Source of the DNA: Candidatus Hadarchaeota archaeon
GTDB taxonomy: Archaea > CAYQAE01 > CAYVLA01
NCBI GenBank assembly: GCA_964621445.1
Contig: CAZUNO010000003.1
Location: 138,306 to 202,305 of the forward strand
Length of the DNA stretch: 64,000 bases
Reading direction: 5' to 3'
Under the pieces are notes generated by a model. That model did not search any database. It was not told where the DNA came from and saw nothing but the letters and a program-made list of their open reading frames with translations. Positions 17,960 to 22,291 of the stretch are shown here, piece after piece; positions within the stretch are counted from its first letter, which is position 1; the number at the start of each line of letters is the position of its first letter. The position numbers and the translations under genes are program-made.

Positions 17960-18193
17960 TTGACCATGGTTCAGAAACCAATGGATATACTTGATTCATC
18001 ACTGGACCAGGTAGTGCTCATAAAGCTTAGGGGTGGCAGAGAGTTCAGGGGCCTCCTCCGCGGCTATGATGTACACATGAATATAATCCTGGACGAGGCG
18101 CAGGAGCTAGACGGACCGGATGCCCTGAACTTCGAGACCGCCATAATTAGGGGCGATAATGTTGTATTCATATCGCCGACCGATAAGAGGTGA
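17960..18193 (+). CDS. Sm-like archaeal protein (SmAP/LSm)
   Basis: [39 protein letters not shown]; upstream of rpl37e. Confidence 0.95.
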
Positions 18194-18198
18194 TCAGA

Positions 18199-18366
18199 GT
18201 GACAAAGGGAACGACATCTTTTGGCAAGAGGAACAAGGTTACTCACGTTATATGTCGCAGGTGCGGCAATCATTCCTATCACGTAAGGAAGAAGAGGTGC
18301 GCTGCCTGCGGTTTTGGGCAGAGTTCAAAGAGAAGGACCTATAACTGGCATAAGTGGTCAACGTAA
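18199..18366 (+). CDS. rpl37e: 50S ribosomal protein L37e
   Basis: Manual translation [33 protein letters not shown]; GAGGTGA SD. Confidence 0.95.
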
Positions 18367-18400
18367 GGGATACGGATAACCGTCCTTGAATCCGAGAACA

Positions 18401-18408
18401 TTTTAAAG
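18401..18408 (+). promoter_or_regulatory. TATA box of tRNA-Ala
   Basis: TTTTAAAG about 25 nt upstream of the tRNA. Confidence 0.6.
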
Positions 18409-18432
18409 CAAATCCAACTAGTGATCTGCGGT

Positions 18433-18556
18433 GGGCCGGTAGATCAGTCGGTAGATCGTCGTCTTGGCATGGCGTTTAACGCCCCAAGCTGGCGGAGGCC
18501 GCGGGACAGGGTCTGGGTTTCCAGGCCTTGCGCGAATTCAAATCCCGCCCGGTCCA
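18433..18556 (+). tRNA. tRNA-Ala(GGC) with two introns (37/38: 18470-18489; 53/54: 18506-18536)
   Basis: Acceptor GGGCCGG/CCGGTCC with G3-U70, D stem GATC/GATC, anticodon GGC, T arm GCGGG-TTCAAAT-CCCGC after splicing; both introns form BHB-type motifs. Confidence 0.92.
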
Positions 18557-18692
18557 CTTTCGGGTTAACCCATTTAACCAATTAGGAATATAAAATAGGC
18601 CTTTTTGGATTTTTTTATGGGGAATATTGCCAATTACGGGGAAATCCGTTTCGATTTACGTGCAAAATGTCTTATTATAGACCCGATGTCAC

Positions 18693-18706
18693 AAAAACTT
18701 TATAAG
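18693..18706 (+). promoter_or_regulatory. BRE/TATA promoter of the candidate ncRNA
   Basis: AAAAACTTTATAAG about 23 nt before the 5' stem. Confidence 0.6.
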
Positions 18707-18728
18707 CAGGCCCGTCCTTTACAGGAAT

Positions 18729-18824
18729 GGGTCGCCTGAGCGGTAACTCAACCCCCTAAACCCCGAAAAGAAAGAACCCCCTATTTCCCCGAATTGTGTG
18801 TTTCTTTTCTCGCTGAGGCGGCCC
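18729..18824 (+). ncRNA. Candidate structured small RNA of unknown family
   Basis: Ends pair (GGGTCGCCT-G-AGCGG / TCGCT-G-AGGCGGCCC); inner stem GAAAAGAAA/TTTCTTTTC; duplicated C-rich motif; own TATA box. Confidence 0.55.
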
Positions 18825-18876
18825 CTTTGGGTAAAGACCAATAAGCCTCTAGTATACACCATATTATCGTGGTCGA

Positions 18877-21297
18877 GTGAGGGGTCCGGAAGTCGGCATA
18901 TCCAGCCTTGGCGGGGAGTGCATTTCAGTCGCGCTTCTATCCCTGGCCTCGCTTACCCTGGAGATCAGCCTTACCAGGGTTTTATCATTGGTTGCCTGGT
19001 ATCATTTCGCGTTTATGGTGGTTAGCATAGCCCTTTTTGGTTATGGGGCTGCTGGAGCTGTTCTTTCCGTGTTCCCTGGGCTCAGGAAGGATGGGCGGGT
19101 CCTCATTGTCTCATCCTGGATATGTTCCATCGCCGTAGTTCTCTGCCTGGTATTCCCGGTGGTATTTCATTTCGACCCCATGCTGGCAGACACCGAGCCA
19201 TTCCACCTGGTAATGATAGTTTTACAGTATCTTAGCCTTGGTATTCCCTTCTTTCTCAGCGGAATATGCCTGGCTTCCGTGATATCCAGGCATTCGGAGA
19301 GGTCCAGTATAGTCTACTTCTCAGATCTAACCGGAGCCGGGTTGGGGTGCATAGCCGCTTTGCTGCTGCTTCCACTGGGGGGACCAAAAATCCCCGTCTT
19401 CTTCGCCGCGGTGGCGGCGGCCCTTGCATCCGCCATCTTTTCATATGTCCACGGTGGAAGACGTCTTATTTTCCTGGGATTGGCTACTGGATTGGCATTG
19501 CTATTGGTGGGGGGAGTGGTAGAATACGATCCGGAGATCTCCGAGTACAAGGCCATGAGCGCGGTTTTGCGGCAGCCCGGCGCTGAAAGGGAGTGGAGTT
19601 CATGGAATGAGGTGTCGCGGGTTGACGTGCTGAATAGCAGCATGATAAGGTATGCCCCCGGCATGCCCTTCGAGAAGTACTATCCGATTCCCGAACAGCT
19701 TGGCCTTACCGTGGATGGGGACAACCTGGAACCGATAACCAGGTTTAGCGGTAATCTTTCCGATCTATCGTTCATGAGGACTTTGCCCTCCTCGGTTCCT
19801 TACCAGATGTCCTCCAGATCCAGAGTCCTGGTAATCCGGTCCGGTGCCGGTTTCGATGTGCTCAAGGCCCTGGTGAATGGGGCCGAAAGAGTTTCCGGGA
19901 CCGAGAGGAATCCTGGAATTGTCGAGGTGGTTGGTAAGGAGTTCGAGCGGTTCTCGGGGGATATATACTCCCGTGAGGATGTTGACCTGGCGCGGAGGGG
20001 TGTAAGGTCATATCTAGGCGAGGTTGAGGGCAATTTTGACCTGATGGAGATATCGCTTAAACAGGACCCCGTAACCTCGGCTGTGGGGATGTACAGCCTC
20101 TCCGAGAACTACCTTTTCACCACCGAATCCTTTGGTGAGATGTTTGAGCATCTATCCCCGGAGGGAGTCCTGACCGTTACCAGGTGGCTATCCCCTCCAC
20201 CAAGACAGGGGGCCAGGGTGGTGAGCCTAATGGTCGATTGCCTGGAGAGGGAGGGAGTGGATAGAGTTGGAGAGCATATCGCTTGTTTCCGTACATATCT
20301 AACGATTACTGCGATGATTAAGAAGACGCCTTTCACCGTTGCTGAGATTGATGATCTCAGGAGGATTTGTGAGGAGAGATCGTTTGACCTCGTGTATGTG
20401 CCAAATATCACCAGATCGGATGTCAATCGTTTCAACCTGTTTGATCGGCCATACTACTTCAACGCGATAAGCAAGATCGTGAACGACACTGAAAGGGAGA
20501 GCTTTCTGTCGGATTATATCTTCGATCTTTCCCCTCCCACGGATGATAGTCCCTTCTTCTTCGATTTTCTAAAGCTGGGTAGACTGGGTGATATCGCCGG
20601 GGCTCTGGGCCCGGCCTGGAATCCCTTCCTGGAGGGAGGCCTCCTGATCCTGGCGGTTTCGGCGCAGTCATTGGTTGCCTCCTTCCTGTTCATAATGGGT
20701 CCTATTTGGCTATCATCCAAGTTGGGACATGAATTGGAGATGGAGTGGAGGTGGATATCCTACTTCCTCTGTCTGGGCGGGGGCTATATGCTGGTGGAGG
20801 TGTCCTTCTTGCAGAGATTGATACTGTTCCTGGGACAGCCATCACACGCCATGGGGGTGACTCTGTTCTGCATGTTGGTCTTTTCCGGCCTGGGTAGTCT
20901 CTGGAGCGGACGTTTTAGGCCGAGTTCCAGGCTCGTAGGGCTCTGTGTTCTAGGTATCGTGTTTATGGTCCTTGCTCACGTTTTCCTTTTCAGTTTTCTA
21001 ATAGGGAATTTCATGGGGCTGGGAATATGGATGAAATCTCTGGTGGCCGTGTCAATACTAGCCCCGGTAGCCTTCCTAATGGGAATTCCCTTTCCCACGG
21101 GATTGAGGGTTCTGGGAAAGAATTCCCCGGATTCAGTTCCCCTGGCCTACGGTTCGAATTCATGTGCCTCGGTTGTGGCCTCGGCTGGTGCCATGGTTCT
21201 GGCCGGGTGGGGTGGGTTTTCCGGTGTTTTGCTGTTGGCTATTGTACTCTATTTGATAGGTTTCCTTTCCCTAAAAGGTGTTGGGAAAAGCGGATAA
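18877..21297 (+). CDS. Polytopic membrane protein with spermidine-synthase-like SAM-binding domain
   Basis: LEISLTR..YHFAFMVVSIALFG, YFSDLTGAGLG, WNEVSRVDV, ENYLFT.E, TDDSPFFF, PFPTGL. Confidence 0.8.
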   Translation: MRGPEVGISSLGGECISVALLSLASLTLEISLTRVLSLVAWYHFAFMVVSIALFGYGAAGAVLSVFPGLRKDGRVLIVSSWICSIAVVLCLVFPVVFHFDPMLADTEPFHLVMIVLQYLSLGIPFFLSGICLASVISRHSERSSIVYFSDLTGAGLGCIAALLLLPLGGPKIPVFFAAVAAALASAIFSYVHGGRRLIFLGLATGLALLLVGGVVEYDPEISEYKAMSAVLRQPGAEREWSSWNEVSRVDVLNSSMIRYAPGMPFEKYYPIPEQLGLTVDGDNLEPITRFSGNLSDLSFMRTLPSSVPYQMSSRSRVLVIRSGAGFDVLKALVNGAERVSGTERNPGIVEVVGKEFERFSGDIYSREDVDLARRGVRSYLGEVEGNFDLMEISLKQDPVTSAVGMYSLSENYLFTTESFGEMFEHLSPEGVLTVTRWLSPPPRQGARVVSLMVDCLEREGVDRVGEHIACFRTYLTITAMIKKTPFTVAEIDDLRRICEERSFDLVYVPNITRSDVNRFNLFDRPYYFNAISKIVNDTERESFLSDYIFDLSPPTDDSPFFFDFLKLGRLGDIAGALGPAWNPFLEGGLLILAVSAQSLVASFLFIMGPIWLSSKLGHELEMEWRWISYFLCLGGGYMLVEVSFLQRLILFLGQPSHAMGVTLFCMLVFSGLGSLWSGRFRPSSRLVGLCVLGIVFMVLAHVFLFSFLIGNFMGLGIWMKSLVAVSILAPVAFLMGIPFPTGLRVLGKNSPDSVPLAYGSNSCASVVASAGAMVLAGWGGFSGVLLLAIVLYLIGFLSLKGVGKSG

Positions 21298-22191: not shown

Positions 22192-22291
22192 GGGCCCGTG
22201 GTCTAGCTGGTTATGACATCGCCTTGACGTACTCCTTTTCAGGCGTTCAAAAAGGCGAAGTTCTTGGGTTCAAATCCCAACGGGCCCACCA
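22192..22291 (+). tRNA. tRNA-Val(GAC) with canonical 37/38 intron (22230-22252), CCA encoded
   Basis: GGGCCCG/CGGGCCC acceptor, TCGCC/GGCGA anticodon stem, BHB helix TTGA/TCAA, TTCAAAT loop, upstream TTTAAA. Confidence 0.93.

Follow-up and report, generated by a model that had tools for sequence, protein, structure and literature searches.

The window analysed here is a stretch of 64,000 nucleotides (nt) from a Candidatus Hadarchaeota archaeon (G000:C3:138306-202305), and at 18729-18824 on its plus strand lies a 96-nt element that is very probably a real gene for a structured RNA. The genome it comes from (G000) is an archaeal assembly of 3.2 Mb with 52% G+C that is 96% complete. The RNA, called here the C-family RNA, is predicted to fold into a long hairpin that leaves two invariant C-rich regions unpaired and, judged from its sequence, belongs to a small RNA family not yet described. 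The same genomes contain a second RNA family, the G-family, whose invariant core is the perfect antisense of one of the two C-rich loops. The favoured reading as a whole, namely that an undescribed small RNA acts as the antisense partner of the G-family, is put forward tentatively, as something a little short of an even bet. The parts of the gene are as follows, in window coordinates:

18660-18668, plus strand: upstream motif GTGCAAAAT, 38 nt before the TATA box
18693-18706, plus strand: B recognition element (BRE) and TATA box, AAAAACTTTATAAG, the promoter element of the small RNA gene
18729-18824, plus strand: the small RNA, 96 nt here and 88-97 nt in relatives
18729-18743, plus strand: 5' strand of the terminal stem (P1), pairing with 18810-18824 in 15 pairs
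18744-18764, plus strand: asymmetric internal loop with C-rich motif 1 (full motif 18750-18767)
18770-18776, plus strand: 5' strand of the inner stem (P2), GAAAGAA, in the register common to relatives, pairing with 18802-18808
18777-18801, plus strand: terminal loop of 25 nt with C-rich motif 2 (loop 2), the proposed pairing site
18802-18808, plus strand: 3' strand of P2, UUCUUUU, in the shared register
18810-18824, plus strand: 3' strand of P1, supported by pairing and covariation

The structural support comes from 8 distinct sequences (alignment A3). Identical copies were dropped before alignment, that is, L040 (the same as L038), L044 (the same as genome G001 within the element), and L032, L034, and L037 (the relatives' own records). 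In P1, 119 of the 120 cells of the alignment are standard pairs and there are three compensatory pairs, a result reached by only 3 of 500 column shuffles. When the partner strand is slid by 1-3 columns as a control, the pairing drops to 33-51%. An earlier reading of the letters without database searches (the sequence-only reading) had proposed that the ends pair over 14 base pairs (bp) with one G-G mismatch; the mismatch is there, but the stem has 15 bp, and where this genome has G opposite G, the other seven sequences form a G-C or G-U pair. At seven P1 positions some sequences have a G-U pair, where the opposite strand, or a DNA palindrome, would have an A-C mismatch. Since these pairs fit the plus strand only, selection acts on the plus-strand RNA. 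The plus strand folds at -32.7 kcal/mol (z = -2.45, with 2 of 200 shuffles folding as well), and the fold of the minus strand is unremarkable (z = +0.56).

The inner stem, P2, has weaker support than P1. The 9-bp version proposed earlier, GAAAAGAAA with TTTCTTTTC, is possible between 18765-18773 and 18801-18809, but only in this genome; the relatives use the shorter register (R)AAAGAA/UUCUUU(U) beside the second C-run. In that register 5 of the 8 sequences have 7-9 contiguous pairs, and three closely related ones have 4 pairs and an A-A mismatch, while the outermost (seventh) pair varies among A-U, G-U, and C-G. P2 is present in the minimum-energy fold of 5 of the 8 sequences.

The unpaired regions are the most conserved parts of the RNA, whereas the stems vary. 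The duplicated C-rich motifs lie where they were first reported, at 18750-18767 and 18775-18793. Motif 1, UCAACCCC...CC, is invariant or nearly so in all 8 sequences and unpaired in the minimum-energy folds, and the internal loop that carries it is one-sided, with 0-3 nt on the 3' side. As first delimited, motif 2 overlaps a longer invariant block, AAAGAACCCCCTATTTCCCCGAATTGTG, whose 28 nt span 18771-18798 and are identical in 8 of 8 sequences. The RNA has four unpaired C-runs in all.

The element is the best-conserved block of its locus in all three family relatives, with 79-82% identity compared to 70-72% in the neighboring Sm and L37e genes (1.4-kb query). Closer still is a strain of about 94% identity (contigs from three DNA runs), which has no substitution in 18710-18826 and 20 in the adjacent 203 nt, 10 of them in 18557-18709 and 10 in 18827-18876. 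The sole change within the element at the strain level is a TG insertion after 18794, in a variable GU-repeat part of the loop. The strain comparison is, at the level of sequence, a sign of purifying selection on the element. The segment had been described as having no credible open reading frame (ORF), and this is borne out by the aligned relatives, which are separated by gaps of 1, 4, 6, and 8 nt; therefore there is no conserved reading frame, and the two ORFs that overlap the element (44 amino acids on the plus strand and 47 on the minus strand) are rejected.

The element is narrowly distributed. In a phylum-level set of five genomes, it occurs in four, which are all four members of family f1 (G000 to G003), and G004, from a sister family, does not have it. 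The covariance model R1, for which the 8 distinct sequences were used, detects a single copy per genome in the four family members (101-116 bits, E <= 1e-21), no copy in G004, and just one marginal match (24 bits, E 0.028) among 146 other archaea. Reading the syntenic Sm-L37e-tRNA locus of G004 by eye revealed no comparable element. A 19-mer scan of all species-representative genomes returned 6 stretches, of which 3 are the relatives and 3 are bacterial chance matches without the rest of the element; a 19-mer scan of metagenomes returned 8 stretches, with the whole element on 6 of the 8 contigs. A same-sense copy of 16 nt of loop 2 at G000:C4:34936-34951 (L004 1501-1516), apparently intergenic, was also considered. 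It lacks the stems, is absent from the three relatives, and is probably due to chance.

The string AAAACTTTATAAG is invariant across an alignment of 4 genomes, while the spacer of about 22 nt after the TATA box is variable. The TATA motif, CTTTATAAG, begins 30-31 nt before the first G of P1 at all nine loci of the relatives; in G000 the distance is 31 nt. The spacing had been likened to that of tRNA genes, and rightly so, as the distance from TATA to 5' end is 30-33 nt at the six tRNA genes of this genome that have a recognised TATA box. The strain of about 94% identity has no substitution in the BRE/TATA element. This is the arrangement expected of a trans-acting small RNA with its own promoter: a BRE/TATA at 30-31 nt and a variable spacer. 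Further upstream, most of the 8 sequences share the motif GTGCAAAAT, identical or nearly so and equally spaced, and it is possibly the binding site of a transcription regulator.

Two features downstream of the hairpin bear on whether the RNA is a separate unit, and both are outside the RNA:

18833-18845, plus strand: promoter-like motif AAAGACCAATAAG, putatively the promoter of the gene that follows
18877-21297, plus strand: gene for a multi-pass membrane protein of 806 amino acids (from the ORF list)

Motifs like GAAACCAATAAG stand between the element and the gene for the 806-residue protein in G000, G001, L038, and L039. In G003, where the gene is 1.6 kb away from the element, the promoter-like motif has remained beside the gene. 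The motif GAAACCAATAAG thus travels with the gene, which argues against the element being its 5' leader. Because the promoter is invariant, the spacing is tRNA-like, P1 covaries, the loops are invariant, and the downstream gene has a promoter-like motif of its own, the element is best read as an independent RNA gene, as the sequence-only reading had proposed when it spoke of a separately transcribed RNA presenting C-rich single strands. That the small RNA is its own transcription unit is quite probable on these grounds.

No described RNA family accounts for the element. Rfam 15 was searched with all of its 4227 models, which include tRNA, 5S RNA, the RNA of the signal recognition particle (SRP), RNase P RNA, 6C, RsaE, Y RNA, riboswitches, and ribozymes. 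At the gathering score the whole window has no match at the element and only the tRNA at 22192-22288. In 18350-18950, with the threshold relaxed to E <= 10, there is only the tRNA at 18433-18556 and a meaningless match to a long non-coding RNA (12.6 bits, E = 0.055). ARAGORN found nothing at the element. The early judgement that this is not a tRNA, 5S, SRP, or RNase P RNA therefore stands, since no Rfam family matches it.

The role of the C-rich loops could lie in pairing with G-rich RNA, and one concrete candidate is available. A scan of the genome for complements of the loops gave two 13-nt matches that fell in similar intergenic sequences, and it was through these that the G-family was recognised. 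A BLAST search of the element against its own genome gave short matches only (E >= 0.1), and two of these, on contigs C24 and C2, lie in the G-family. Members are 89-104 nt long. With a second covariance model, R2, built from 4 copies, G000 yields 5 copies and G001 to G003 yield 2 each (11 in total); G004 yields none, and 36 other archaea just one marginal match (25 bits). Neither the window nor the metagenome contigs with the C-family element gave a match to R2. The distribution of the G-family is thus that of the C-family RNA, restricted to the same genomes. The copies in G000, at loci numbered L057, L062, L066, L067, and L068, are the following:

G000 C14:58337-58434, plus strand: G-family copy (R2)
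G000 C22:45600-45702, plus strand: G-family copy (R2)
G000 C2:28179-28282, minus strand: G-family copy (R2)
G000 C24:34565-34653, plus strand: G-family copy (R2)
G000 C6:33788-33888, plus strand: G-family copy (R2)

In the G-family, the terminal stem is 10 bp long and shows compensatory changes; GGUCG and CGACC form an internal helix, and the elements also have an invariant UCGCGGUCGGCUUCC and the core GGGGAAAUAGGGGAUUCUUCUCAGGCGACCUCU. The promoter region is common to all 11 copies and includes a further upstream motif, AAACGTTKGGRTAACA; most copies have T-rich tracts directly after the stem. There is no match to Rfam at E <= 1. One orthologous set (type A) lies about 45-50 nt upstream of a URO-D-like gene of about 350 amino acids in all four genomes, and another set lies downstream of a DUF4838 gene. 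The protein of about 350 amino acids has no sequence match in Pfam, NCBIfam, or PDB, and the label URO-D-like comes from its look-alikes in a protein atlas, which are a lead only.

The G-family core, GGGGAAAUAGGGG, is perfectly antisense to CCCCUAUUUCCCC of loop 2. All 13 nt match in 5 of the 11 within-genome pairs of C-family and G-family RNAs, with at least one such pair in each of the 4 genomes, and one more pair has a 12-nt match. In the remaining G-family copies, a single nt is inserted, deleted, or substituted within the A-rich middle. For comparison, when a G-family copy was shuffled 1000 times, the longest match was 11 nt, seen in 3 shuffles, and 12 nt was never reached. Flanking pairs (UUCUU with AAGAA, and ACA-rich stretches with UUGUG) lengthen the local duplex to 19-27 bp. 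The local duplexes have energies of -27 to -39 kcal/mol in all 11 pairs, and once the energy needed to open both RNAs is subtracted, -10.6 to -26.5 kcal/mol remain. Compared to 3000 random 100-nt windows of the genome, all five G000 copies are in the best 1%, and one of them beats every window. Loop 2 is unpaired in the folds and has a 13-nt antisense in every one of the 4 genomes, with the proviso that this partner was found post hoc. The sequence-only reading had suggested pairing with G-rich mRNA leaders. The pairing with G-rich RNA has gained a concrete, co-distributed candidate in the G-family rather than in mRNA leaders in general; complements of the loops show no excess across the genome.

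What can be taken as established is the sequence, its conservation, the covariation of P1, the strand, the non-coding nature, the distribution, and the complementarity. What follows is inferred from sequence: where transcription starts, that a discrete transcript exists, that the two RNAs pair in vivo, and in which direction regulation runs. Driven by the invariant BRE/TATA, transcription would begin with the first G of P1 or a neighboring nucleotide. The RNA would then fold into one long hairpin, with the 15-bp P1 and the short, A/U-rich P2 holding out the two C-rich single-stranded regions. Loop 2 (AAGAA-CCCCCUAUUUCCCC-GAAUUGUG) would base-pair in trans with the invariant core of the G-family, GGGGAAAUAGGGGAUUCUU, and motif 1 may perhaps also bind the G-rich core in a weaker register. 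In one version, the single-copy C-family RNA would be a sponge (anti-sRNA, that is, an RNA directed against other small RNAs) that titrates the G-family RNAs. The reverse is equally allowed, in which case the C-family RNA would open the internal helices of the G-family and so change the downstream genes, such as the URO-D-like gene. With a multi-copy, co-regulated G-family on one side and a single-copy RNA with two related sites on the other, the arrangement most resembles a titrating decoy. Whether the two RNAs do pair in this manner we would answer with a hesitant yes at most, the prospects being slightly on the unfavourable side. More doubtful is the full circuit, in which G-family RNAs under a common promoter architecture and regulator site would be kept in check by a decoy born of an inverted duplication of the G-core.

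Several observations weigh against this reading, and they concern both the independence of the gene and the pairing. As to the gene, the locus sequences have no oligo-T terminator or T-run after the hairpin. The element also adjoins or stays with the gene for the 806-residue protein at all loci, even where the Sm locus has been lost, and such a constant neighborhood could instead point to a functional link with that gene. As to the pairing, both complementary motifs are invariant, so there is no covariation between the partners, and each motif could be conserved for reasons of its own. Full-length cofolding clearly favours the hetero-duplex in 3 of the 11 pairs only, although cofolding cannot model loop-loop kissing. 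The favourable pairs are those of the G000 copy on C24 (-13.7, with 0 of 60 shuffles as good), the G002 copy on C287 (-7.6, 1 of 60), and the G000 copy on C2 (-5.2, 3 of 60); for both G003 pairs the cofold is unfavourable (+4.5 and +7.1). The predicted G-family fold has part of the G-rich core in internal pairs. Across the genome, 12-mer complements of the loops are not enriched (33 versus 11-35 in 10 shuffles), nor do 11-mers stand out (121 versus 68-133), and most of the best complementary sites fall within ORFs or on the strand opposite them. The G-family was found by the same complement scan, which makes its statistical weight partly post hoc. Finally, C-rich motif 1 has no convincing partner.

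Other targets were looked at as well. In G000, the first 12 nt of the C-family RNA are antisense to CUCAGGCGACC of one G-family copy (an 11-nt perfect match). This second block has an A-C mismatch in the other three genomes and sits in the stable P1, and we read it as the probable trace of a common origin by inversion rather than as a pairing site. The rRNA operon (16S-23S) was set aside as a target. RNAduplex gave no long continuous match for the two loops; the best results, -20 and -27 kcal/mol, contain large internal loops and come without a control.

Among the rivals to the antisense reading, one could consider a general regulator of translation of the RsaE/RoxS or 6C kind, whose C-runs would pair with G-rich Shine-Dalgarno or start regions and block ribosome binding. 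The four unpaired C-runs (CCCC or CCCCC) fit such a role. With a 16S rRNA that ends in ...GGAUCACCUCCU, this genome can be expected to have G-rich ribosome-binding sites, and in one relative the gene for the 806-residue protein has GGUGAGGGG just 5' of its ATG. However, it is the whole 28-nt block around motif 2 that is invariant, well beyond the C-runs, and this points to a long and specific partner. The 11-mer and 12-mer complements show no genome-wide excess, in a scan confined to matches of these lengths, and no conserved mRNA target turned up among the best sites, which are mostly positioned in ORFs or opposite them. On balance, a translation regulator of this kind is unlikely.

The same low probability applies to a protein-binding scaffold or decoy, whose C-rich loops would be recognised by a protein such as a KH-type poly(C) binder or the neighboring Sm protein, and whose complementarity to the G-family would be the remnant of an inverted duplication. 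Invariant loops combined with varying stems are typical of contacts with a protein or a ligand. The reverse complement of the RNA also shares two collinear blocks with the G-family (the 13-mer with UUCUU, and CUCAGGCGACC), which fits an inversion. Against this, no candidate protein was identified, and the genome has no Ro60/TROVE gene. As for Sm in particular, Sm proteins prefer U-rich RNA, the adjacency of element and Sm gene is lost at 1 of the 8 loci (L044), and the Sm-L37e-tRNA locus of G004 is without the element.

Less probable again is a cis-acting, riboswitch-like 5' leader of the gene for the 806-residue protein, read through from the strong promoter. A homologue of the gene lies downstream on the same strand at all loci examined, including L044, where the Sm-L37e context is gone, and the missing T-run after the hairpin would suit a leader too. 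Position nevertheless speaks against a cis leader or riboswitch, since the element is intact despite intervening genes in G003 (two genes on the opposite strand, 1.6 kb) and L043 (a glyoxalase-family gene), and the promoter-like motif between element and gene stays with the gene in G003. In addition, the 50-nt spacer has 10 substitutions in the very strain that has none in the element. The last alternative, a DNA-level inverted-repeat operator, recombination site, or neutral remnant, has the inverted repeat of the ends in its favour but is highly improbable, since the seven G-U stem positions are mismatches in a DNA palindrome, compensatory changes keep the pairing of the RNA, the invariant promoter stands at a fixed distance, and the element is free of strain substitutions amid variable flanks.

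How does this RNA compare to those that are already known? The 6C RNA of Actinobacteria is a small structured RNA with two hairpins whose C-rich terminal loops are thought to pair with G-rich RNA. The likeness, which had been suggested early on, is in the display of unpaired C-runs by a small structured RNA. The C-family RNA, however, is a single long hairpin with C-runs of 4-5 in one internal loop and one terminal loop of 25-27 nt, and it comes from an archaeal lineage and has an archaeal BRE/TATA promoter. Homology to 6C, or membership of its family, is not supported: there is no Rfam match and the architecture is different. The RsaE/RoxS-type small RNAs of Firmicutes use unpaired CCCC motifs for antisense pairing, and the motifs are duplicated within one RNA, as they are here. 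The differences are that the C-family RNA has no similarity to them in sequence or model and no terminator hairpin, and that its candidate partner is a non-coding RNA family with a 13-nt perfect match instead of Shine-Dalgarno sites.

Sponge RNAs, or anti-sRNAs, are another point of comparison. The known examples, such as SroC and AsxR/AgvB, are bacterial, are often Hfq-dependent, and often derive from mRNAs or prophages. In common with them, the C-family RNA has sites antisense to the conserved core of other small RNAs, a single-copy decoy set against a multi-copy family, and two related sites. Unlike them, it is a stand-alone archaeal gene with its own promoter. In titles and abstracts of the literature, the matches listed for archaeal small RNA sponges include no archaeal sponge RNA, and those listed for archaeal C-rich small RNAs and the Shine-Dalgarno sequence include no archaeal C-rich small RNA. 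Among the titles and abstracts listed for Hadarchaeota non-coding RNA there was nothing relevant, and those listed for four motif strings were likewise irrelevant, with neither motif described. By analogy, the small RNA would resemble both C-rich base-pairing small RNAs and bacterial sponges in its working, and it is a member of neither group.

Three other classes were considered and rejected. Y RNAs are similar in being about 100 nt long, with ends that form a long stem and a pyrimidine-rich internal loop. However, there is no TROVE/Ro60 gene in this 96%-complete genome (0 matches to PF05731, with control genomes responding) and no match to Y RNA in Rfam. The C/D-box and H/ACA guides of archaea are also small, abundant RNAs that are independently or intron-encoded and act by antisense pairing; the RNA here is longer than typical guides. 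It has no RUGAUGA, and in all 8 sequences P1 takes up its 5' CUGA in Watson-Crick pairs, in agreement with the early observation that clear C/D boxes are lacking. H/ACA RNAs are excluded as no ACA follows the stem in any of the 8 sequences and there is no two-sided pocket. The 3' flanks of the hairpin are CUUUGG, GCUGAU, CUAUAA, CUGAUG, CUACAA, and CUAGUA.

The neighborhood of the element holds a few observations of its own. The small RNA is located between an intron-containing tRNA gene (18433-18556) and the gene for the 806-residue protein (18877-21297), and the Sm protein is encoded at 17960-18193. The tRNA gene, on the plus strand, is 124 nt long with about 53 extra bases and scores 37.7 bits with the Rfam tRNA model. 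It is overlooked by plain ARAGORN, while the intron option of the program reports a tRNA-Gly at C3:156738-156862. By eye there are two apparent introns, the first following the anticodon loop and the second within the T-arm, and the same tRNA in the sister-family genome G004 has a single, shorter insertion. A second intron-bearing tRNA of the window is at 22192-22288. The 806-residue protein has no sequence match in Pfam, NCBIfam, or PDB. Its look-alikes in the protein atlas are of about 800 amino acids, mostly bacterial, and labelled as spermidine synthase family, which is again a lead only.

Two of the related loci have been rearranged. In L044, a metagenome contig closely resembling G001, the PUA-Sm-L37e genes no longer adjoin the small RNA and the gene for the 806-residue protein, and an ORF of 641 amino acids lies upstream; the rearrangement left the small RNA and that gene together. 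In G003 (contig C216), the insert that separates the two (L026 1666-3059) encodes a winged helix-turn-helix protein of 205 amino acids with a weak match to AbiEi_2 (E 3e-4) and a protein of 259 amino acids without a Pfam match. Together the two inserted genes may be an AbiE-type toxin-antitoxin pair.

To our knowledge, few archaeal regulatory RNAs are known, and almost all of them come from a handful of cultured species. Here, two RNA families could be recognised from sequence alone in an uncultured lineage. Both have a promoter, a covarying stem, and invariant cores, and each is antisense to the other. At the least, this yields two new covariance models for annotating such genomes. The pair would also be compact and an easy target in vitro, consisting of two transcripts of about 100 nt and a 13-nt core. 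If the pairing is true, RNA-RNA titration networks, so far bacterial and eukaryotic, would exist in Archaea too. And if the circuit is true, it would be the first RNA-sponge network described in Archaea, in a lineage with just 5 species in the genome set searched.

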